Of a DNA stretch of 64,000 bases, positions 1 through 14,749 are shown piece after piece (positions within the stretch are counted from its first letter, which is position 1; every line of letters begins with the position of its first letter). The position numbers were made by a program, and so were the translations under genes. The notes beneath the pieces are model-generated. The model ran no database searches. It was not told the origin of the DNA and was given only the letters and a program-made list of their open reading frames with translations. This stretch comes from Peribolospora baueri (lineage: Eukaryota), in contig JAMDHS010000046.1 in the NCBI GenBank assembly GCA_029717555.1, positions 1-64,000 on the forward strand, read 5' to 3'.

Positions 1-3000
1 GGCCCGACTCGGACAATCCCAAGCGCCTATCTCTCCCCCCTGGACCAAAAGGTCTACCTTTCATCGGCAACGCGCACCAATTGGGCGGCGTGAGCCTACG
101 CATCTTTGCTGTGAAGACCAGCTGAACTGAGTTGGAGGCCTCACTCGGTCCCGTCGTTTCTCTTTACATTTCGCTGCACCAGTACCCTTGGCGCAAATTT
201 GACAGTTTGATCAAGCAGTTTGGTCCCATCGTCTCCCTCAATGTCGTAGGGACCGTGAGCTTCTGCACCTCGGTAGGCGGCAAACATTTTGGAGGACGTC
301 TCTTGACGTCCTTCTCCTATTCTTCCTTTCTTCTTCCCTAATGGGAACAGCCCCTGATTCTCATAGGCGATGCTGAAGTCGCTAAGGACATTCTGGAGAA
401 GGATGGTGCCAATACTGCCGACCGTCCGATCAGTCACATCGTGAGCCCTGTTGAGATCTTTTCCGCATCTTTGAGCCCCTCATACCTCCCTCCGTTTTTG
501 CTGACAGGGAAAAATGTCCAATAAACGCGCGTTCCTATTATTTTCTTCGTTCCCTCTTTTCTCTCTCTCTATTGCCATGAATTTTCCTTCCTCGGTGACA
601 GTTTTACAAATACGGCTCGAAAGAGAAGATGTCCATCATCGCTCCCGATTACGACGACCAGGTGAAGCTCAGCCGCCGGCTTTTGACGGAGGCCATGTCC
701 ATTCTCAAAACGGGTGCCTCCGAGCCTGCGCACGAGACGCAGATGAGGTTCTGCTTGAAGAGGATATTGGACCAGCCGGACGAGTGGGCCAAGAATCTGA
801 ATATGTGAGTAGGTGGGAGACGGAGGTGGAACTTTACTGGAAGGCAGAACGATGAGGATAGGCCGGCACCTGAATACTCCGAGCATACTTTCTCTGCACG
901 TCGGAACCCTCGCAGCTACACCGTGGCCGTGCTCAAGTCAGTCGTCTTCGGCGACCTTTGCGAAGATGGAGAGCAGGCCTTTGAAGCGGCCGAGAACAAT
1001 CAGATGGTGTGTAGGCGTTCATACCCTTCTTTTTCTTTCCTCCAACTGGAAACGACCGTCTAACTGAATCGAATCTCACTCGCCCGTTTACACCTCCCTA
1101 ACTCGTCCTTTCCAACAACGCTCACCAGTTCTGCGACATGGTCGACGACCTCGTCCGTCCCGGCGCCACCATTGCGGACTTCTTACCCGTCCTCGACAAA
1201 CTTCCCTTGCCGAGGTCGTGGTGCGCCTGGAGGGCAGCAGGAGATGATGTATACAGGACGTCACTCGAAACCTATTCCAAGCTCATCGAGCCCGTTCAGA
1301 AGGATCTCAATCTGCACGGAGCGAGCGCTATGAACTCGTGAGCATCGCTCTATTAACCCTCTTCTTGTCTGCTCCCGCCTGACGGCGACCTGGTCGCCTT
1401 CGACGCTACCGGTACGGAACGCTTGATGACGCTCGTGCCCGCCTATCTTCAGCGTCACAAAGGCCATCATCGATCATCCCCAGGCGAAGAACGTCAAGGG
1501 TGGCATGGAGTTTCTTCTCGGCGCGCTCTGGCTTGCCGGCCGCGACACGGTGATTACCTCCACATGTCACTATGTGTTTACCTGGCGGACGTCGATATCG
1601 CGTAGATAGGGACCTCGCTCACTCGGCTCGTTGACCACGTCCTTTGCCTCTTTTCCCTCACCTGAATCTTGTAGACGCACACCACCCTCCGCAGCTTCGT
1701 CCTAGCTTGGGTCAAGTTCCCCGAGGCGATGGTCGCTGCACGCAAGCAGATCGACGCCGTCGTTCCGGCCGATAGACTCCCCTCGTTCAGCGACCGTGCC
1801 AACTTGCCCCTTGTAGAGGCCCTGATTAAAGGTATGTGCCCATTGGCCGAAGATGCCATGTTTTCTCCTCTATTTGAGCGAGACCGTTCCGGTTTCTTGG
1901 ATATATTTGTGGTGTGGTCACGAGGCAGTCTCGCTCATGCAGGCCGTTCCTCCATTGCGCAATGTCTCCAGAGGTACAGCGCTGGCGCAGCATTACACCC
2001 AACGGTGAGAGCCGTGAACGGTCCTTCCATGTCCATAAATATTTTTTTGTTCGACTGTTGAAAGAACCGATTGATTATTCCTCCTTGCCCGTCTCCTTCT
2101 CTCGTCGCCTGACGCGCTGCACGCGTAGGCCTGCCTCACCGATCGAAGAAGGCGACTGTCTATGGCAATTTCTATATTCCCAAAGGGTCCATCATCATCG
2201 GTAACACTTGGTGGGTCGGCTACTCTGCCCGTTCCCGTGGTTCCGCTCACACAAAGCAAGGCTTTCCATCAAGCATTTCCATTCTGACCGACCGGCTGAC
2301 GTCGCCACTAATCTCCCTTCCTTCTGGCTCCTTAGGACTATCGATCACGACCCCAAGCTTCACCCTGATCGTGAGCATGCCGATCTGCTTCTTTCGCAAC
2401 TGCCGGAGTCTAGGGGGAATTCTTTTAACTTTTTTTTTCTTTGCGTATCGCGAAACGATCTCTTCTAGCCGAGGCATTCAAGCCAGAGAGGCATTTGAAC
2501 GATGACGGCACCCTGAAGAAACTCGACAACATCTTCACTTTTGGCTACGGCCGTCGCGGTGAGTCGTCCCTTATCTTTTCTCTCTGAAGACACGAGGTCT
2601 TGGTCCAAAACTATGGAGACGATGACCGTTTCGATCTAACCGATCCACTCATCGGCACGGCTCGCTTGGACCGCAGTTTGCCCCGGCCAGCCCATGGCAG
2701 AGCGCTCGCTCTTCATCATAATCGCCGGCTTCCTGTGGGCGTTTGACGTCAGCAAAGCCCGCGACGAGCATGGGAAAGAGATTGACGTCGACGATCTCAG
2801 CTACATGGTGCGTCGCTGCTGACGGTTGCGATTCGTGTATGTGGCCGTGGGGCAGAAGAGGACGCTCAGTTCCACTTGTTTGAATCGCTCTCTTTTGACG
2901 TCGCAGGACGGCCTCAACCCGCGCGCCAAGCCCTTCCCCGCCAATTGGAGCGTCCGCGACGAGGTGCGAGCTCAGACGATCAGGAGGGCACTCAAAACCG

Positions 3001-3032
3001 AGGTGGCATGTGTCGGTCTCGCCTCCATGTGA
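1..3032 (+). CDS. Cytochrome P450 (multi-exon, 5' end outside window)
   Basis: Spliced exons give the proline hinge PPGPKGLPFIGNAHQL, I-helix GALWLAGRDT, K-helix EALIKEVQRW (ExxR), PEAFKPERH and heme motif FGYGRR|VCPG (split by an intron near 2559-2676). Stop at 3030-3032. Confidence 0.93.
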
Positions 3033-3269
3033 TTCGGTCCGTACTTCGCCTCGCCTTACAGCGCTTTCCTGCGAGCCACCTATCACTTTCATTCGTGGGA
3101 AGCATGGTTCGGCACGTTCCATCCCTGAGACGGATTTGGCGACCCGTCCGTCCATCTCCCTAAGTCGAGCGGCCGATACGTATGTCGAGTCCTTTCCCTC
3201 CGTCCACTTCCCCCCTTTTTTTCCTCGCGTTCTCCGTTGGCCCCAGTCCCTCATCCCGGGCACCGTTCG

Positions 3270-3480
3270 AACATCTCAATTGGCCCGATAACTTTTTCTT
3301 GACTCTTCTTGGAGCTCGAGCATTCGCCCAGACCTCGTGCTCACCAGGAAAGGCCCATCCTTCTTCATTTCCTCATGGGCCCTGTAGTCCGATTCAGTTC
3401 GATCATTAGCCCATCGTCTTGAAATTCAGTTTGCTCGCCAAGTCCTTTACAACCCCTTCTTGGATACGAATTTCTTAATA
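3270..3480. repeat. Copy A of a degenerate direct repeat (partner at 8451-8580)
   Basis: catctcaattggcccgataact...ttcttggagctcgagc.ttcgccca and ccatcgtcttgaaat.cag.ttgctcgccaagtcctt.acaaccccttc occur here and at 8453-8555. Copy A carries an extra ~75 bp between the two blocks. Confidence 0.85.
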
Positions 3481-4100
3481 GGGGAAGCGAGACGTTCCTA
3501 CAGTGAGATGTCCTTAGATCATGCTGAGTGAGCGCCTCTTCAGGTACACCAGCCGTAGTTCGCTCAACGGTGGCGAAGGAACTTAAGAGCATAAAATACG
3601 GATCCAGTCGTCTTCGTCGCAAACCTCGACGGTTTTGCTGGCTTAAGAAAGATGATTTAAGGGACGGCTCTAAGCGAGAGCGGATACTCAACTCGTCAGT
3701 ATCACGTAATCCGCTCAGGCAGTTGGTCCGTGCGCTCCGAGCCCCATGGAAGCGGGCCACCGTCAGTGACTGGCTGGCAACCAATCCCCAGATAAGTCGA
3801 CGAAAGGTTTCCAAGGTGGCAAGGGGGACAACCTCTTCTTATCTTGGGCCTATTGGGGTTGACGTAGCCTCCGGCCGGCTCGTTACCGCCAATGTCGCAC
3901 TAGTCTTCCGTCTCCGATCGGAGGCACTGCCAAGTTCCTGGCAGCGGCCGCTCATTCCGTCAGATGGTTGACCAATTTTGCTGGCGAATATCCTGGTGGG
4001 ACGCGGGCTGTTGTCCTTTGGGAAGAGCATGCTGCCAGCTGTGGAATGTGGAGACGAAAATCTCTAGGTCCTGTATGTGATTAAGCCAACTGTCAGTGCC
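3280..4100 (-). pseudogene. Possible decayed gene relic of unknown family
   Basis: Protein-like stretches between splice-like signals are interrupted by in-frame stops (e.g. SKTVEVCDEDDWIRILCS*VPSPPL; QQNWSTI*RNERPLPG). No family recognised. Confidence 0.25.
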
Positions 4101-4633
4101 AAACTCCTTCGTATCTACTGCGGCATATCGTAAAGTAACGTCACGGCCGCCAACCTTCGAGTCCGTCCCCATATGTGTCTCCATAGAGCCCATGTGACTG
4201 GCAATGCATGTGCGCCCGCTGAGGGCTTCGCACATAATCCAACACTATGTCACGCTCCTGACTAAGAGCGTCCTGTCATTGGTTCACTGGAGCCAACGGG
4301 ACCCCAGTGATGGCCCAAGTCATGACAGCGTGGCTACAAGTCACACTGGGCGCTTCAACCATCGAGATGTCGTTCATACTGTATTTGTTTCATTTCAAGG
4401 CTGGCCATCGATTTGGTGCTCCACATCCCGGCAAGCGCGGAAGGCGCTGGTTAGCTGGGACTGAACGCCACCAATCGAAAAAGGGTCCATAGCCTCGGCG
4501 CGGGAAGTGGCGATCGGCGGAATGGATTTCTTGGCTATCTCCTCCTGTCACGCGGCCGAGCATTCCGCGGGGTGGGGTAGAAGGCAACCAACCACCTGGG
4601 AGGTCTTGCGTGGCGGTGTGCAGTCCGCTGAGG

Positions 4634-4640
4634 CTATAAA
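4634..4640 (+). promoter_or_regulatory. TATA box of the secreted Cys-rich peptide gene
   Basis: TATAAA about 80 bp upstream of the ATG at 4718, which has a caaaATG context. Confidence 0.6.
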
Positions 4641-4717
4641 GACGGGTTGCCGCCGGCTCCCTCGCCAGCTTCGCTCTCAACCTTTCGTCGCCAGTTGCCA
4701 TTATCAACTCAGTCAAA

Positions 4718-5340
4718 ATGCGCTTCTCTGCCCTCGCTGCCGTTCTGGCCGCCTCGATCGTCACGGCGTCCCCCGCCCCTGCGCCTGCACCCTGCCAGAC
4801 TTGCGTGAGTGATGACTAGTTGCGGATGGCTTTCCCTCGTCCTTCTTTCCCATGACGCTTCCGCCAATATCTTCTGGCAGCTTGGACTGGTCTAAGCCCA
4901 CGCTTACACGTTATTCCTTCAATCGTACTACTGCCCTTCATTTGCCAATTCCGCGTCGGTCCTCGACCATTAACACCGGCGACTCGCTCAGGAACAATGT
5001 GCCCGCTTCGGACTCTGCACCCGTGACCTCACTCTCGCCCAGCGCGACGGCATTGCCGCCGGCCTCTACGGCAAGCGCGACCTTGGTTTCGAGGACGTCG
5101 AAGAGCGCGAGCCGAAGCCATGCACGACGTGCGAGCAATGCTTCTGCTTCGGCATCTGCTCGCGCGATCTGACGGAGGTGAGTTTCGAGTATCCCCAGGC
5201 TATAGTACCGTTCGCATTGACGGCTTGGCTCGCTGGACTGACGGAGTGATGACCTGATTGGCTCCCTGCTGCTTATCTTCTACCAGATTCAGCTCCGCGA
5301 AACCATAGCCGGCGTCCATGCTGCCGCCTGCAGGAAGTAA
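4718..5340 (+). CDS. Small secreted cysteine-rich two-repeat precursor (KEP-like), 108 aa
   Basis: Exons 4718-4804, 4992-5177 and 5287-5340 with GTGAGT donors and CAG acceptors. Protein: MRFSALAAVLAASIVTASPAPAPAPCQTCEQCARFGLCTRDLTLAQRDGIAAGLYGKRDLGFEDVEEREPKPCTTCEQCFCFGICSRDLTEIQLRETIAGVHAAACRK. Splicing restores the internal repeat, which supports the model. Confidence 0.85.
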
Positions 5341-5489
5341 AGCACAATCCTTCTTGGCTTCCGGTCGTGCCGTGGGCTTGGGTATACGTCGGAACTATGT
5401 TGTGCCCATTATTACGAAATATACGCGAAATCGAATCAGGCATGCGCGTAAGATGCAAGCTTCAGTCCGTGTGCTTGCTGTACTTCCGT

Positions 5490-5990
5490 CTCTCCATGCC
5501 ACGTCCTGAGCCAGCCAAGGAGCGTCGGTAGTGCTCCACGAGTGCTTCGTCGTTCGAATCGAGTCTCTCCGCGATGGCACTGAAGCGGGTGGAGTAGTCC
5601 CTCGCTGAGCCGGTCTGTCGGAGAGCGAAGAGCTGCTCGGTCGCGGTCCTGGACGAGTGCGGATCTCCGAAGCGCGAGAGAAGCTGCGCGGTGAAGCCCT
5701 CCCAAGTGCGCAGCCATGCGTTCTTGCGGAGGGGCGCGGGACCGTCGATTTCGCTGCGGAAGGGAAAGATCCATTGAGCGGCGTCCCCGTCGAACCAAGT
5801 GATGGCAAAGTCAATCTTTTGCTCATCCGAGAGTTCGTAAAATTTGAAGAAGATATCGAGGGAGAAGACGAATCACTCTGTGATGGCCTGTGATCTTCTG
5901 GCGGCGGAAAACTTGTTGGGTTGGGTGGATTCGGGAGCCTTGACGAGGTGAGCGCCGCTTCGCGGCGGATGGCAGCGACCACCGGGGCGG
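5490..5990 (-). mobile_element. Ty3/Gypsy retrotransposon Gag (capsid) relic
   Basis: A frame absent from the ORF track reads ...QAITE*FVFSLDIFFKFYELSDEQKIDFAITWFDGDAAQW...TWEGFTAQLLSRFGDPHSSRTATEQLFALRQTGSARDYSTRFSAIAERLDSNDEALVEHYRRSL. This fits the Retrotrans_gag pattern (LxQxGS-x-x-DY-x-x-x-F). In-frame TGA at 5873-5875; no pol follows. Confidence 0.8.
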
Positions 5991-6212
5991 CGAAGCTCTT
6001 GATGGCATGTTGGTGTCATCGGTCGGAGATGTCCAGATCCAGTAGCCGCGAAAGGATCTGGTCGACCTGAAGGTCCGAGAGGTCGTTGGTGCTGGACATA
6101 GTGGTGCTGGCTCGGAGCCTAGTGGTTGGATCAGATATAGAGAAAGCGAGGGCGAGTCGATTTTTTCGAGTGGAGCAAGGGGGACGAGTATGCTAGAAGC
6201 CAGCAAGCAAGG

Positions 6213-6670
6213 TGTAACAAGGTTCGAGGTTATAGCAATGGGGAGCGAGGCGCTGTTGTCATTCTTCATCCGAGCAGGGGGGAGAGGGGCTGTATATATA
6301 CACTGGACAACCCTACTGCGGTAGTCCGTGACAGCGACGCCCACCTCATGCGTACCGTGACACGAGATCACGACGAGAGCGAGAGCTAGACGAGGGGAGC
6401 CAAGACGAGGGCAAAGGCGAGGACACGGGACGAGGCAAGAGTCAAGAGCAAGGACGGGATACGAGATGGGGATGAGGGTTTGCTAATGAGATATCCGATG
6501 AGGGACCACTTCCTACCCAAGACTGAGAGCCTTAATACGCGGAGGGGATCCCCACAAGACCGGGGAAAACCATACCAGAGTGCGGGGCTATGGGGGGAAG
6601 TGTTGAGGCAGACGGAGAAACCATAACCCGAGCGAGGAGGGTGCCGACCTCGGGCACGAGCGCCGTGACA
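6213..6670 (-). mobile_element. Putative 5' LTR (or nested LTR fragments) of the Ty3 relic
   Basis: On the minus strand, TGTCACGG starts at 6670, 6362 and 6333 and GTTACA ends at 6213 (TG...CA inverted termini). TATATATA lies near 6293-6300. The segment is directly upstream of gag; the true boundary is uncertain. Confidence 0.45.
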
Positions 6671-7595
6671 GAAACGGGTCTTCAACTGGGAAGGAAGATA
6701 AAGCAGCGAGAAGAAACGGTCTTCCAACAGGGAGGCAGGATAAAGCAGCAAGAAGAAATGGTCTTCAACAATGGCATGCCACGTAGCAAAATGGAAAGGC
6801 GTGGACGGAGGATAAGTGCGGGAAGATTAGCAAGATGAAAAACAAGGACAAAGGGTCTGCAACGGGGAGAGAATATAAAGCAGCGAGAAAAAACGGGTTT
6901 TCAACAAGAAAGCGTTGAACAGGGAGGGAGGATAAAATGGCAGGAAGATGAATAAGAAGGAGAAAAGGGTCTGCAACGGGGAGAGAAGATAAAGCAGCTG
7001 GCAAAAACGGGTTCTCAACAAGAAAGAAACGGCTTTTGAACTGGGTGGGAGGATAAAACGGCAAGAAGAAACGCTTTTCCACAACGTCGTGGCACGTGTC
7101 GAAATGGAAAGACATGGAGGGAGATTAGCGAGATGAAAAACAAGGAGAAAAAGGTCTGCATCGGGGAGGGAAGATAAAGCAGCAAGAAAAAACATGAAAG
7201 AAACAGATCGTCGAAGGGAGGGAGAAAAAACGACGGCAAGAAACGGTTTTGAGCAGTGTCGCGCCACGTGGCAAAATGGAAAAGCGTGGGCGGAGAATCA
7301 GCGGTGGAAGATGAAAAATAAGGAGAAAAGGGTCTTCAACAAGAGAAAAACGGTCTTGAACGAGGAAGGAAGATAAAGCAGCAAGAAAAAAAAGAAAGAA
7401 ACAGGTCGAAGGGAGGGAGGAAAAAACGGCGGCAAGAAGCGGTTTTCAGCAGTGTCGTGCCACGTGGGAAATTGGAAAGGCGTGGGCGGAGAATCAGCGG
7501 GAGAAGATGAAAAAACAAGGAGAAAGGGTGTTCAACAAGAGAAAAACGGTCTTCAACGGGGAGGGAAGATAAAGCAGCAAGAAAAACAGGGAACA
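6671..7595. repeat. Purine-rich degenerate tandem array (satellite-like)
   Basis: Recurring GATAAAGCAGC (about 8 variants), AAAACGG..TTCAAC, GGAGAAAAGGGTC and GCCACGTG..AA.TGGAAA.GCGTGG blocks. The last occurs near 6778, 7091, 7263 and 7459. Confidence 0.9.
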
Positions 7596-7603
7596 AGAAC
7601 GAA

Positions 7604-7709
7604 TACTGGCGGAGGAGGGTGGAATGTTGCACTGGCGAGGGAGGCGGGAAGTGGAATATTGTGCTGGCGGGAGAGGCGGGAAGCGGAAATTGCACTGGCG
7701 GGAGGTGGG
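7604..7709. repeat. Short tandem repeat, ~30-bp unit x3-4
   Basis: Variants of ACTGGCGGGAGAGGCGGGAAG(T/C)GGAAT(A)TTG repeated head to tail. Confidence 0.75.
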
Positions 7710-8034
7710 TGTCCCGTTTATCCTCGTCTCTGATGCTAACTCCGGCCCTAGCTGCTTTAATCTTCACCAGTTCGGCAATCTTGTCGCCGAGTTCCTCTAC
7801 CGAGCCGTCCAGGGTGAGGCCGAATAGGTCGGGTTTAACCTGCCAGCCCATCGCTGCATCGCCCATCGTGAGGGCTGTCTTGAGGTCGTTGTAGAGCTCG
7901 CTGCCAACCTCCCTGGTCTGGTTCGGGCCTTCGTCGATTAGGTTGGCCACACTCCCCTTGTCCCTGGAGTCGTCGCACGTGAAACGGACAACAGTGCCAA
8001 GGAATGTATCCCGGTCGTGGTTGTTGTTGCTCAT
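7710..8034 (-). mobile_element. Ty1/Copia Gag N-terminal (UBN2-like) relic
   Basis: ...LYNDLKTALTMGDAAMGWQVKPDLFGLTLDGSVEELGDKIAELVKIKAARAGVSIRDEDKRD resembles the copia gag pattern L..L.L.GSV.E...KI.EL......AG..I.DEDK. It is truncated where the tandem repeats begin. Confidence 0.55.
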
Positions 8035-8450
8035 GCTGGTAAGATCGATGTGTTGGTTTCTTGGCGGTAGTCCTGCTCGAGGTGGGTAGCTATTGTCGTT
8101 GCTGTCTTAGCCCAGGCGTAGGCTAGATGGGAGAGGATACAGCGGCTCGACACTTCCTATTCACGAGGGCGACATCACCGTGGCCCACATTCCTTCGGAC
8201 AGAGCCAAGGTTACCTGTAGGATTCTTAGCTACAAATGAGAGGGAAAGACGATGACTTCTCATTGCTGCTCCCAAGCTCCGCGGCTGATCGTCGGGGCAA
8301 TAAGGATCAGCGTACCTGGTCTCGCTCGTCGCCTCGCCGTGCCCTGATTCTGGCCACCGCTTTTCTATTCATCCTGTATCCCTAACCCCGGGCTGAACCT
8401 CCTCGCGCGCACCCGTTCCCAGGCCTGCCTTCCTGCTGCGCTCTCCGTTA

Positions 8451-8580
8451 GAGCATCTCAATTGGCCCGATAACTACTTCTTGGAGCTCGAGCGTTCGCC
8501 CACACCCATCGTCTTGAAATCCAGCTTGCTCGCCAAGTCCTTCACAACCCCTTCCCTTTTCGATGGGAACGACTTCATTC
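8451..8580. repeat. Copy B of the degenerate direct repeat (partner at 3270-3480)
   Basis: Same two sequence blocks as at 3272-3330 and 3411-3460, here contiguous and in the same orientation. Confidence 0.85.
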
Positions 8581-8634: not shown

Positions 8635-10253
8635 CTAAGCCCGCGCGTCCTCTTCTTCAGAAGTGTCCAACTGTACGCCTCTGCCGCCTCTATGCCGAAT
8701 TCTCGAGACCACACCATCCCAAAGCTGTCTCGTCCCTTTAGCAACGACTGTGAAGAAGCCACTGTGTTTTGGGAGGATGCGATCTGGCCGGATTCGGTGC
8801 TGTTGATGTGGGTTTTTTGGTGCAGACGAGGAGACGGGCGACGCACAAGTCAGTTGGACTCGCTTACTTACCTGCAAACGCCAGCTTTTACGCGTGCCTC
8901 GGATCGGCCGTCTCGCGAACCGAGCCCACCCACCTTGTCGTCGACCAACACTCGCAGACTGGCCAGGATGCTGAGCAAGACGGAGAGGGCAGTCGAGGCT
9001 GAGAGAATGAACATGATGATCGTCTGCAGCTTCGTCGCTTGGTCTACGGGCGTGCCGGAGAGGAGGGCACCGGTCTTTTGTTGGGGTGAGGGGAGTAGGA
9101 CGACCAACGAAGATGGAGAGCGTGCGAACGGTCAGAGCGCAAGCTTTGCTTGGAAGACGAGGAGACGAGCGTCCTCGAAATCTGTTCAGCTGTGAGGCGA
9201 CATGCTCTCTAACGCACCATCATGCCTGGGATGGAGATGAGACCAATGATGCTACGGCGCGAGACACGAACGGGGTGAGAAGACGGTGGAAAATATGGAC
9301 GAAAGGACAGGCTCAGCTGTCGTTTCCACCGAAGTGTCTATGACCATTCTCTTTCCTCGCCCATTTTCGATGTCATCCGACGTCGTTCAACCTCGCTCAC
9401 CTCATCTGATTGATGATCGGCAGCAGCGCGATCCTCAACGCGTCGATGGCTACGGGCCTGCTCGCTTCGAGGCGCGTCGCGCCATGGGCGAGGAGCGTCT
9501 CGATCTTGTCCTTGTTCTCGCTGCGTGAGAGGGACGAGGACGGGCGCGACGAGCGACCCAGAAACGACTTGAAAGATGAATCCGAGCGCGAGAGCGAATG
9601 CATCCCGGGACTTGTTTCGACCGAAGAGCGGCTTCGGGCAGACGTCCACTCTGGCCGGCGCACTCACCTAAACTGAGTGAGCGTGTACCCGACGCCAACG
9701 CCGATGCCGCCGATGGCGTTGCCAAGGATCATGCCGAGCGTGGGCACGTATCGCATCGGCTCCCAGAAGGGTCTTTGCGACAATGCGAAATGGGAGCCGA
9801 CGGCGGAGATGGGCAGGGTGGTGATGAGCATGGAGAAGAGTGTGGTGAAGAACTGGCATAGATGTGGGGAGGGTGGACGAAGGAGAGAGAAGACGTCAGC
9901 GACGGACTGAGGCAAAAAAATAGACTCGACAGATTCACCATGCCCTTGTGCCTCCTCTTGCTCTTGCTGAAGACGACCTCCCACGCCCCGAGCAAGTTGA
10001 GGAGGACGGAGACGGCGGCGACGGCGAAAATGTTCCTGCTCTCGAAGACGCTCTTGAGCACGAAGCCCATGAGCCAGAGCTGGACGACGCATCGGAGTGC
10101 GGCGATGAGCAAGCTGCGCTCGATGCGGAGGCCGAGGGCGAGGGAGAGGAGTGCGTCGACGAGGACGAAGCCGAAGCCGAAGAGCACGTTCCAGTAGGTG
10201 AGCGTGACGGCGGGCACGTCTGGCGGGCCTGGTGACGCCGAGGGGCTGTCCAT
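8635..10253 (-). CDS. UPF0014-family membrane protein (FetB/YbbM/STAR2-ALS3-like ABC permease subunit)
   Basis: Six exons: MDSP...LLIAALRCVVQLWLMGFVL; ...RYVPTLGMILGNAI; ENKDKIETLLAHGATRLEA...ALRIALLPIINQM; SIIGLISIPGMM; TGALLSGTPVDQATKLQTIIMF...DDK; HRIRPDRI...EDARA*. The GMILGN, GAT and G-I-S-IPGMMTG motifs are UPF0014 hallmarks. Confidence 0.9.
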
Positions 10254-10608
10254 GTTGCTCCAGCCGTTGCTGGCGGGCGTGGAGGAAGGCGTGGAGGTGG
10301 TAGTGGGAGGCAAGAGGCAAGCAAGGACAGAGGTCGCTCGACGATGGCTTCTTGTGCTCGGCTCGGCATCTCTTCTTTCTATCTCCATCCACCTCGCCCA
10401 CGTGCCGGACCATCCATGTCCATGTTCGGCAGGGACGACGACGGCGGCGATAACAAACAGTCGCGATAATTTGATATTCCTTCTCCCTCCTCCAACCCCC
10501 TCGTCGTCGCCATCCTCCACAACGCCCGCTTGCCGGTCGCCGCCACCTCGATCCTCATCTCCCCGCCCCCCGCCGACTACGCCAGACGAACACCCGGAAG
10601 CGAGGACC

Positions 10609-11884
10609 ATGTCGCCGCCCGCCTTCTTCGTCGCCGAGCACATCACCAAGCTCCAAGAGGACGGGAGGCCTCTTTTCGAGGACGTCTCCTTCCAGCTCGA
10701 GCGAGGCGAAGCGGTTGTCATTAGCGGAAGGAGTGGATCTGGGTGAGTGGCGTGGTCGACCGTGTCCCGAGTTTACGTCGTCCCCGTAATGAGGCTCTCC
10801 CGTGATCTCTGCCTTGTTCGTCGCCGTCGCGCTGTGCAGAGCTCACCACTTCCTTTTTCTCTTCCCCTGGGGACAACGGCGACCACGACGACCGCGACGA
10901 GCAGGAAGACGACGCTGCTCAAGTGTCTCTCTGAGCTCACTCCTTACGACGCCGGCGGCTCTCACTTCTGTGGGCTGTGAGTCGTACTCTGTCCAACCAG
11001 TCCGGTCCTTCGGTGTGCTCACCGCCCGCTTCTCGTCTTCGCCTCTCCCTTCACATGAACCTACTCGCGGCCGACGGTCGGACTACTAAAGCTCACCGTC
11101 AGACCTGACGCCGCCCGTCTATCGGACGCACGTCCTCTACGTCCCACAACGACCCGCCCTCCTTCCAGGCACGCCACTCGACTTCTGGAACCGGATCACC
11201 TCCTTCAACGCCTGGCAATCCGACAAGGCCTCTGCAGCGACGGAAGCGACGGCTCATCTTCCAACTCGTGCACCCGCCAACGGGAGTGTGCCGGCAGTGT
11301 CGGGCGATGAGGACGAGTCCCGTTGGCCTCCCATCGAGGCCGACCCCATTCAGATAGCCAAGGGTTGGGATCTGCCGGAGGAGGCTTGGAACAGAGAATG
11401 GATGCAGCTGAGCGGTGGAGAGGCGCAGAGGGCCGGCCTGGCCATCTCCGTCGCCCTCATTGGCGGTAAAAGAAAGGGGAATGGCGTGTTGCTTCTCGAC
11501 GGTGAGCCTCGCCGCGCACTCATATCTCTTCCTATCCACCTCCGTCATGACCCCATCCACGCTCACGCATTCCCCTCTATCTTTGCAGAACCCACTTCCG
11601 CTCTCGACCCATCGACCGTACACCTGGTCGAAAAGACACTCCTAGGCACGGCGGCGGCGCCGACGGCCGCGCTCGTCGACGCCAGCACCGAACCCGAATC
11701 TGGCTCAGCGCGGCCGATCAAAAAGAAGGCCGGCGGCGGCGCTGGCCCTCTTACGCTTGTGTGGATCACCCATTCGGACGAGCAGGCCGAACGGATCAAG
11801 GCCAGTCCAGGCGGAGGCAAGCTCGTTTACCTCGGCGGCCAGCAACAGCGGAAAGGAGGACCGTCGTCGTCGTCGTCGGACTGA
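10609..11884 (+). CDS. Stand-alone ABC ATP-binding subunit (FetA/YbbL/STAR1-like)
   Basis: Walker A GRSGSG|KTT (split by an intron), Q-loop YVPQ, signature LSGGEAQR, Walker B LLLD|EPTSALD and H-loop WITHS. No transmembrane domain. Confidence 0.9.
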
Positions 11885-12128: not shown

Positions 12129-13672
12129 TTACCGGAACCAGAAATTCACGCTCGCGCTCGTACTCGTACTCTTCACGCCGTGTAGCCATCCCTCAGGAAT
12201 GAAAAGCGCTTGTCCGGGATGGAGTTTGGTGACGAGCATGGCGTCTGCGTCGGTGAGCGCTCGTGATAGGCGTGGGTAGGGAGATTCGATGTCTGGGGGT
12301 GAAGAGGAGGAGGAGGAGGAAGAGGTGGGATGAAGGAAGGGCTCTTCGGAGGGAATCGTGGTCGTGTTGCGCTGGAGCGGGTGGGTGGATAAGTAGAGCC
12401 AAGGCGCACAGGTGGGCGGAAATAGGTGGATGCGCTTCGTCCCGACGACTGGAGGTGAGGAGGCAAAAGTGAGCTGGCGGAGCAAGGGAGGCACGAGGCG
12501 AGCCTCGACATAGGGAGCTTTCTTTTGTACCCTCGCCCGATTGGACTGCCGAAGCGCTCACCTTGGACAAAGAGGTTGTGGTACGCTGCAAGGCCAACGA
12601 AACGCAGCATACGCCGTTTCGACCTATTAGATGGCCCTTGTCTCCGGCTCTCGTTCGCTTCGCTAGACGGAATCTATCCTTTGTACTCACGATCTCGATG
12701 CACAGGAGTCCAAGTTCCCTCCGGACCTACCCAGACGTTGCTCCGGTATTGGTGTCGGTCCGTGTTGGGCCCTGCAGTCAGATGAGGGATCGCAGGTTGG
12801 CAAGACGCTGCGAGGAGAGGCGACTGAGAGGGGCGCGGCGCGGGTAAGCGAAGCGCTTGACGAATGAACGGCTCAAGAGCGAGACCATTCCGGATCCCCA
12901 GCCGACGCCTGCGAAAAAGCAACCACATACAGCTGACAAGAGATCAAACTGCGCGACGTAGCCGAGCGGAGGAGACGGCGATCCGGGCGACGATGGAATC
13001 TTGCGAGCGACGAAAGCGTCCAAGAAGAGACCTGCGTTGAGCGTCCGGTACGAAAAGATGGAATGGGTTTCGCAATGAGTTAGGACGGTCTTACGAAGGA
13101 CTCTTCCGCTGCGCTGACAAGCCCCCGCTCCGAACCGTTGAAAGACGAGGAGACGCATCCTCACCAAACGGCATCTCCACCTGCTCCCAGCCGCCGGCGC
13201 CCTCCCTGCCAGCGACGCCGCCGACATCGCTGCTACTCCCCGTCTCCTCTAGTCGATCCATGTAGCTCCTACCGGACCTGCTGAGCTCGACGGGGACTAG
13301 CAGGTCTTCCGTCTCCGCGTTGCGCATGCCTTGAAGAGTCTCTGCTTCCCGACGGGGCGCTTCCTCCCCGGTACGTAGACGGCGAGAAGACCAAGCCCGA
13401 ACGGCGGGCCATTCGTCCACCAGACCCGAAATCACCGCCGGACGAGAGGGCAGGAGATGTTCCTGGACAAACTGCTCTGGAGTCGGCTTTTCCAGGTGCG
13501 GCGGAGGCGGTCGGCGCCCGGCCGGAGAAGAAAAGGAGGACGTGGTGAGCGCTCGTCGGTCGCATCGTCCAGCGACGGGTACGCCTCGACGCCCGGGCTT
13601 TGTCTGCCGTGCGAGCGGTGCCAGCCAAAAAAGATGTCGGCCCGTCCCGTACAGGACATGAGGGGCCGACAT
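12129..13672 (-). CDS. JmjC/cupin_8 2OG-Fe(II) oxygenase (JMJD5/FIH-like)
   Basis: RPAVISGLVDEWPA, VPVE, YVAQFDL, NVWVGPEGTWTPVHRD (HxD), NLFVQ|VVGTKRIHLFPP and LHPGQALFIPEGWLHGVKS...SVNFWF (distal His). Confidence 0.9.
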
Positions 13673-14749
13673 GGACTGGTGGTGGGCCCGTTTTCGTTAA
13701 TCAGATGGTAGCAAGCGACGAGGTGATCGCTGGTGAGAAGATGATCGACGGCGATCTCGATCATTTATCTCTTTTATCTTCCGACATAGTCCAACATTCA
13801 ACATTTAACACCTCCATCGACACGACACGTGCTCTCTCTCTCATCCTCTTCCACTCGGTCCACGGGATGAGCATGCAAGGCCGCCAAGAAGCCGTCTTGC
13901 TCCTCGGATGGCCCAAGCCCAAGCCCACATACATCGTCTATCTCACGGCGTTCTCATCCCGGTCCTACAGGGCGCACGTTGCCTGTCGTTTTCAGATTTC
14001 ACGTTTCTATTCGCCATCTCCCACTCACCGCGGTCACCGACCAGCTTGCCGAGAAAAACACCTCCGCTCGTGCCCCGCAGTGTTGAGTCGCCGTTGTTCT
14101 CGAGAGCGACAGCGGCCGTTCCCCACCGGGCAGCTTGAGCCGCTCAGGGCGCAAAAGCATCAGCTGCCCGTTTGCGCCGGCGAGTAGGACGGGCATAGGC
14201 CATGCTTAAAAGCCCGCCAAGTTGATAGACGGGCTCGTCGAATGATTGCCGGCCCCGGGTCCGTCGACTTGGAACGCAAGATGGAAGCGGCTTAGAGCCG
14301 AAAAAGATCCTCTTGGGCCAGCCGGACGGTATGAAGCCAGGAAGGGTGGGCCTGGGCCTGGCGGAGAAGATGGCGCGCGAGGAGCAGAGGTGGTCCGTGC
14401 GACGGCGACCAGTGGCAACGACAATGCGGTGATCAGAGTGATGAAGCTCGGGCTGATATTTTGATTAGAACTTAGGCAACCAAACTCGGGAGCAACGCGG
14501 AATGCGACACACAAAAAAAAAAGTCCATAACGTCGTGGGAAATTCTGCAGCGCAAAAAACGTCGATTCCAGGTCGCCGTCTTGTTCGCAGTTCGTTATTC
14601 GCCGCCTCGTTCATGGCGCTCATTAGTTCATGGCTCCTTGTTCGCCGCCTCGCTCATTACCCACGGTTTACCGTCCATGAATGGATGACGGGAAAACTCG
14701 GGGAGGGGGGAGATACGGAGGAAGAGCCGACTCAGAGGGGCCTGTCGTT

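Follow-up and report, generated by a model that had tools for sequence, protein, structure and literature searches.

The short, intron-split gene at 4718-5340 (+) of the window, i.e., of the whole stretch of 64,000 nucleotides that was analyzed, is tentatively read as encoding an alpha-factor-like prepro-polyprotein, which would give rise to two disulfide-constrained peptides of 14 residues that are ligands of a specific protein target. We give this reading a probability of about 0.45. It builds on the observed gene structure, sequence motifs and conservation in one homolog, and expression, secretion, cleavages, disulfides and function are predicted from these. Why basidiomycetes retain precursors of the alpha-pheromone style without a mating use is described as an open question in two publications (PMC6339444; PMC9769878). 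The gene is a compact test case: it has two defined cores that recur in a distant relative, N-termini predicted to the residue, and a putative multi-disulfide scaffold, for which no description was found in the searched literature. Precursors of this layout are common, and the gene is so far without a link to a phenotype.

Gene architecture

The precursor ORF has three exons on the + strand and encodes 108 amino acids. In the splice model, exon 1 (4718-4804) carries the signal peptide, the X-Pro run and residues 1-4 of the first core (core A), exon 2 (4992-5177) carries residues 30-91, and exon 3 (5287-5340) carries the remainder of the second tail (tail B), a lone Cys106 (5329-5331), the terminal RK, and the stop codon, which ends at 5340. 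Intron 1 (4805-4991, 187 nt) and intron 2 (5178-5286, 109 nt) are both of the form GTGAGT...CAG and both in phase 0. A TATA box (TATAAA) is present at 4635-4640 (+), 83 nt 5' of the ATG at 4718. The original prediction of a three-exon gene with a TATA box is borne out by these features.

Between 4700 and 5400 only two GT[AG]AG donors exist, at 4805 and 5178, both of them GTGAGT. For intron 1, three alternative AG acceptors were tried, and they lead to proteins of 33, 40 or 91 aa in which most of core A is lost. The metagenomic homolog P0003, which is described below, is contiguous at this junction, and its eight residues there have BLOSUM62 scores of 36 with the 3' end of exon 1 and of -10 with that of intron 1 read in frame. 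For intron 2, the acceptor at 5287 scores +12 against the tail of P0003 and +7 against the gene's own first tail, compared to -10 and -9 for the rival acceptor at 5293 and -22 and -16 for intron retention; of all 14-codon stretches of the + strand that lack a stop and are preceded by AG (3004, including the true site), 7 score as well as 5287. P0003 supports both splices, matching across the first junction and favoring the second, and at the sequence level the three-exon model with GT-AG introns is confirmed.

Repeats and processing sites

The protein starts with a hydrophobic, signal-like stretch (hydropathy windows of up to 2.6), as does P0003, so that the proposed signal peptide is predicted here as well (residues 1-17, 4718-4768). 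Its cleavage after Ala17 was placed by eye with the -3/-1 rule of signal peptidase. There follow four X-Pro dipeptides (residues 18-25, 4769-4792), a candidate run for trimming by a Ste13-type dipeptidyl aminopeptidase, which ends at Cys26. Core A (Cys26-Cys38) has four Cys and an Arg at core position 9, and it is split by intron 1 (4793-4804 and 4992-5018). The tail A segment (5019-5078) comprises LCTR|D, a candidate monobasic Kex2 site, a tail of 16 aa, and the only KR (5073-5078). An acidic spacer that ends in VEER and two X-Pro dipeptides (5109-5120) together occupy 5079-5120, and lead to core B (Cys73-Cys85, 5121-5159), which has five Cys, one of them at core position 9. The candidate monobasic site ICSR|D and the start of tail B take up 5160-5177. 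All of these features lie on the + strand.

The cores begin at residues 26 and 73, i.e., 47 residues apart, and are identical at 9 of 13 positions, in line with the two repeats of about 47 aa that had been proposed. The two variant cores of the original prediction are indeed related, and are better described as two conserved types, A with four and B with five Cys. Their proposed consensus, CxTCEQCxxFGxC, was too narrow, as EQ is not conserved; the shared pattern is C-x2-C-x2-C-x2-FG-x-C, which occurs twice per precursor.

In all four units, two in the window protein and two in P0003, the X-Pro run is even and ends exactly at the first Cys, so that an X-Ala/X-Pro run ending at the mature N-terminus, as in alpha-factor, is found in 4/4 units; for core A the register depends on the by-eye cleavage after Ala17. 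Likewise, the core is followed by [LI]-C-[TS]-R|D in 4/4 units, with Leu or Ile at P4 and Thr or Ser at P2. There is no pro-region ahead of core A, and core and tail alternate. The X-Pro run of core A directly follows the signal peptide, and that of core B follows a single Arg (VEER). The single KR of the window protein (residues 57-58) adjoins neither core and is followed by DLGF, not by X-Pro; apart from the terminal RK, the other sites are monobasic. The proposal of a secreted precursor with Kex2/Ste13-type processing is supported by the X-Pro register in 4/4 units and by KR-EPEP at both cores of P0003; its details need correction, in that the KR of the window protein lacks X-Pro and the site ahead of core B is monobasic.

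A distant homolog

A phmmer search with exon 2 against 1.84 billion protein representatives (E <= 0.001) resulted in three matches, and only P0003, from a metagenome, shares the cores (E 3.3e-13). The core pattern itself had 0 occurrences in 200 shuffled windows, but as the pattern had been derived from the repeats themselves, the match to P0003 is the real chance test. The second match, P0004, corresponds to the spacer only, and the third, P0005, is an unrelated repeat protein. P0003 is a single-member cluster and stems from a JGI/IMG contig of 2246 bp. It reads straight across the position of intron 1, has 50 additional N-terminal residues ahead of a Met that begins a hydrophobic signal, and has 72 residues between the cores, compared to 34 in the window protein. 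Judged from the protein, it resembles a eukaryotic gene that was read through its introns, and it may have been cut short by its gene caller. The upstream read-through contains G-Y-K 32 codons ahead of the likely true Met, and the codons of Y-K could spell TATAAA.

Both cores are kept in P0003, with 11/13 and 8/13 residues identical to core A and core B, respectively. The two types are in the same order in both proteins: the first cores have Arg at position 9, the second cores have Cys. P0003 contains three KR, and KR-EPEP stands ahead of each core. The signal and the acidic spacer have diverged between the two proteins, whereas the processing sites are kept. The original prediction had named as refuting evidence homologs that conserve the spacers and lose the sites, and P0003 is the opposite case: across the four units the pairwise identity is 8-11/13 for the cores and 4-8/20 for the tails. 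The conservation of the cores over diverged tails and signal, together with the retained A/B order, is consistent with a specific partner that selects for the core. RDLT, Gln8 and Gly15 are present in the tails of 3/3 readable units, and the length of 20 aa to KR is equal in tail A of the window protein and tail B of P0003. The tails are thus partly conserved, beyond what a disposable spacer would need.

Word-index protein searches retrieved a homolog among 0/37 candidates of 50-160 aa with exon 2 and among 0/1 candidate of 30-108 aa, and only P0003 itself among 51 candidates of 109-349 aa; proteins of more than 349 aa were covered by the phmmer run alone. A pattern scan of metagenome DNA had 0 matches, and an alignment scan of viral DNA had 0/35. 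One of 115 candidates of the metagenome alignment scan (L001) turned out to be a chance match in what appears to be a bacterial NRPS-like coding stretch, without repeat or processing sites, and one of 79 in the scan of prokaryotic genomes (L002), which comprises 10 residues immediately behind a stop codon, was likewise rejected. As the searched collections contain few small spliced genes, the small number of relatives is not a measure of rarity.

Pfam yielded no match for exons 1 and 2; a weak zinc-finger match on the exon-1 ORF was below the Pfam cut-off, and two Pfam matches on P0003 were disregarded (E > 0.5). The PDB yielded a single match by sequence (E 1.7). In the ESM Atlas no usable match was obtained with exon 2, and the leads obtained with P0003, at 0.80 and 0.78, are below 0.9; the 0.78 lead is a cluster named 'Pheromone 1'. 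Four motifs of the core occurred in 0 papers of the searched literature, and among publications on Cys-rich or Kex2-cut peptides secreted by fungi, no title or opening of an abstract described such a core; a relative may be catalogued in the sequence tables of the KEP surveys, which lie outside this range. Within it, the original remark that the core was not recognized from any described family holds.

Maturation and likely role

Under the alpha-factor-like reading, the signal peptide would direct the precursor into the ER and would be removed after Ala17, and the Cys would be oxidized to disulfides. In the late Golgi, Kex2 would cut after the Arg of LCTR|D, YGKR|D, VEER|E and ICSR|D, a Ste13-type dipeptidyl aminopeptidase would strip the X-Pro pairs up to the first Cys of each core, and Kex1 would take off the C-terminal Arg. 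Two 14-residue peptides would result, made in a ratio of 1:1. Peptide A would have two disulfides, and peptide B two and a fifth Cys, perhaps being still linked to the Cys-bearing C-terminal piece. The calculated monoisotopic masses of the 14-mers with two disulfides each are 1557.6 and 1539.5.

Published work on these proteases describes that Ste13 strips X-Ala/X-Pro pairs following Kex2 cleavage (PMC6339444), and that Kex2, for which Arg at P1 is essential, accepts Thr or Glu at P2 and favors aliphatic residues at P4 (PMC8528282). According to another study, acidic or small aliphatic residues are over-represented at P1'/P2' of cleaved Kex2 sites, and predicted sites can be blocked by structure (PMC2515848). 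Ste13-type trimming of basidiomycete KEPs has support at the peptide level in a further publication (PMC9769878). Against the 14-mers stand the facts that in the window protein 3/4 cuts would fall at monobasic sites, two of them with a probably disulfide-bonded Cys at P3, that the register of the tails is conserved, and that the support comes from one homolog. The N-termini of the predicted peptides are better supported than their C-termini. The proposed length of 13-15 aa is accordingly less sure than the cores themselves, as it needs a monobasic [TS]R|D cut right after the Cys, Gln8 and Gly15 are retained in the tails, and the fifth Cys may pair with the C-terminal Cys.

The peptides would most likely be extracellular, shape-specific ligands and not membrane-lysing, and the target might be, e.g., an own receptor, a competitor protein or a host protein. 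A specific target is suggested by the precise N-terminal trimming, the conserved Thr, Phe and Gly, the two fixed core types and the near-neutral charge. A lytic action is disfavored by the net charges of the 14-mers, 0 and -1 in the window protein and +2 and +1 in P0003, and by the tails, the amphipathy of which is not significant (12-82% of shuffles are as high). Among the ORFs scanned in the window, none near the precursor was recognized as a receptor or target gene. Le Marquer et al. proposed that KEPs with a STE13 signature are hormone precursors. Peptide-GPCR signaling outside of mating is described for smuts in a study on Pit2/Gpe1 (PMC13652807), where the Pit2 peptide is freed by host proteases.

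Other interpretations

The processed unit could instead be a mini-domain of 31-36 residues or a two-chain product, in which a Cys-rich head is joined to a helical tail; [TS]R|D would stay uncut, or would be cut with the halves remaining joined, and unit B would have a third disulfide from position 9 to the C-terminal Cys. We regard this as rather unlikely, but it has specific features on its side. In both proteins, unit B combines the Cys at position 9 with a lone Cys, 21 (window protein) or 23 (P0003) residues past the core, and this joint occurrence suggests the third disulfide. Unit A of the window protein has neither of the two, core A of P0003 also lacks the Cys at position 9, and cores and C-terminal Cys add up to 10 Cys in each of the two proteins. 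The conserved register of the tails points in the same direction, as does one AlphaFold model that places a helix on tail A, but both models have such low confidence (pLDDT 45 and 42) that they are unusable. Furthermore, the Cys pattern was noticed post hoc with n = 2, the last residues of P0003 may be intron read-through, and its probably intronic middle contains one more Cys. R|D-L is also found after the true KR site, and it is the spacer signature of P0004. P0004 is a KEP of Cyclocybe aegerita with 391 aa, which has long Gly/Ala-rich cationic repeats and monobasic xR|DL spacers.

A more elaborate version, with a lower probability still, would be an undescribed family of paired ligands in fungi of the smut lineage, with A as a two-disulfide peptide and B linked to its own cleaved tail, an insulin-like layout in miniature, used as a non-mating signal or as a two-component antagonist. 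Less likely than such a pair would be a ribosomally made thiolate metallophore that is secreted.

Quite improbable in our view are secreted thiolate metal binders, in which the four Cys within 13 residues would surround one ion for the scavenging or detoxification of Zn, Cu or Cd. The core spacing C-x2-C-x2-C-x5-C is similar to that of structural zinc sites with four Cys and to one half of a CXXC zinc finger, disulfides formed by neighboring C-x2-C pairs are strained, and a gene of the UPF0014 permease family lies about 3.5 kb downstream. However, passage through the ER normally oxidizes thiols, and metallothioneins and Cys4 zinc-site peptides are cytosolic and carry reduced thiolates, so that the predicted signal peptide argues against the cytosolic metallothionein class. 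The invariant Thr, Phe and Gly would be unnecessary for chelation. No zinc-finger or metallothionein match was found in Pfam for exon 2 (E <= 0.01), none was significant for P0003, and a promoter scan with metal-response motifs resulted in 0-4 sites versus 0.02-1.9 expected, without clear enrichment. Of the three roles originally offered, i.e., toxin, signal and metallophore, metal binding would be the least likely for a protein that crosses the oxidizing ER.

A similarly low probability is given to membrane-active gamma-core antimicrobial peptides. Each core ends with G-x-C and has an upstream Cys, and thus all 4/4 cores resemble the gamma-core triad, and the gene is part of an island of 5 kb that is marked by transposons and looks variable, as would be typical for accessory antagonism genes. 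Yet the definition, as given in PMC11395145, comprises net cationic charge and amphipathy in addition to the G-x-C triad, which is very degenerate. The class also has an amphipathic antiparallel beta-hairpin, on which the AlphaFold models (pLDDT 45 and 42) are too poor to bear. The cores of the window protein are neutral and -1, those of the two proteins together are not consistently cationic, and there is no sequence match to any such family.

A silent relic or a wrong splice model is very improbable: a dead gag fragment abuts the 3' end, and codon usage is not discriminating (exons are not separated from one frame of each intron), but the reading frame is intact, the splice sites are consensus, a TATA box is present, GC3 is 0.77 and P0003 fits the first junction and favors the second.

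Relation to known fungal peptides

The closest known parallel to the alpha-factor-like precursor are the alpha-pheromone precursors of ascomycetes, i.e., MF(ALPHA)1/2 of S. cerevisiae and the two-Cys type of Sordariomycetes and Leotiomycetes. According to PMC6339444, they share a signal peptide, X-Pro/X-Ala runs and repeats with the window protein, have a Kex2 site and such a run ahead of each short peptide, and MF(ALPHA)2 likewise contains only two repeats. In contrast, the window gene comes from a host of basidiomycete type, a group that mates with a-type pheromones, its cores have 4-5 Cys and no Trp, it has no pro-region before core A, and cores and tails alternate. Homology to MF_alpha or to known pheromones was not detected, Pfam giving no match to MF_alpha for exons 1 and 2 or for P0003 and the ESM Atlas giving the lead at 0.78 only.

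The KEPs of Basidiomycota with a STE13 signature are, according to three publications (PMC6339444; PMC7329392; PMC9769878), also secreted repeat proteins with basic sites, X-Pro trimming and unknown function. The published definition (Le Marquer 2019; Umemura 2020) comprises a signal peptide and at least three repeats between dibasic KR, RR, KK or RK sites. By hydropathy, the window protein has the signal peptide, but two cores are present in it and two in P0003, which may be cut short, and the dibasic sites are one KR plus the terminal RK in the window protein and three KR in P0003. The proposal of a KEP precursor is therefore acceptable as to its way of working, which is that of alpha-factor or of a STE13-signature KEP, but with two repeats and one internal dibasic site the gene lies outside the published definition. 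For the same reason both KEP survey pipelines would skip it. Two-repeat, monobasic, intron-split precursors thus escape both of these pipelines as well as ORF-based annotation, which constitutes a blind spot. The KEP peptides detected in PMC9769878 are linear, and the words 'cysteine' and 'disulfide' do not occur in its text, whereas the window cores are Cys-rich.

Rep1 of Ustilago maydis is also a Kex2-cut secreted repeat precursor of the smut lineage, but it is reported to yield 11 amphipathic peptides that form amyloid and to be without the STE13 signature, in contrast to the two Cys-rich cores with the signature described here.

The dikaritin RiPPs (ustiloxin, phomopsin, asperipin-2a) have a signal peptide and Kex2-delimited cores in common with the window protein, but their cores contain Tyr for ether cyclization, whereas the window cores are devoid of Tyr and core B of P0003 has one. 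Dikaritins are defined by a DUF3328/UstYa gene within 15 genes, a range of which 4.7 kb on the upstream side lie inside the window. No DUF3328 was found among all 146/146 ORFs of at least 75 aa below 19 kb, nor among 140/198 ORFs of 90-199 aa beyond 19 kb and 38/45 ORFs of at least 200 aa. The search motif of DUF3328 is HxxHC, and both of its matches lie within the span of a DEAD-helicase ORF. Within these ORFs and cores, the comparison with RiPPs is not supported.

Surroundings of the gene

The window is fungal and intron-rich, with split genes for RICTOR, XRN, HRQ1, a thiolase and others. The precursor sits between a P450-like gene (about 1-3030, +) and a UPF0014 gene (about 8870-10770, -). 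The former is a cytochrome P450-like gene with many introns, the 5' end of which is outside of the window (1-3030, +; one exon has a Pfam match just under the cut-off), and the latter encodes a membrane protein (8871-10772, -) and is followed by a Cupin_8 (JmjC-like) gene (12132-13696, -). The sequence context gave no sign that the P450 gene or the cupin gene (12.1-13.7 kb) acts on the peptides.

A direct repeat of about 110 bp (3263-3459 and 8445-8554; 50 nt at 94%, 72 columns at 79%) brackets a segment of 5.1 kb that contains the precursor gene, a gag relic and a tandem array. The left copy has extra segments of 10 nt and about 75 nt, and the repeats do not have TG...CA ends. The segment looks like a variable island. 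In the upstream region (3460-4717), GTCAC/GTGAC occurs 6 times versus 1.7 expected, although the motif was picked by eye and this is not a fair test. Next to the 3' end of the precursor gene is a broken Ty3/gypsy gag (5465-6099, -; Retrotrans_gag, E 4e-13), which has an in-frame stop and a frame change and is truncated near 5515. Upstream of gag, a possible LTR-like stretch of 149 bp with TG...CA (6214-6362) contains TATATATA. An ATG ORF of 232 aa at 7336-8034 (-), for which Pfam had no match, looks protein-like over its first approximately 105 residues and then runs into the tandem array. This array (6670-7705) is purine-rich and nested, with periods of 21, 32, 42 and 196 and a strong strand skew.
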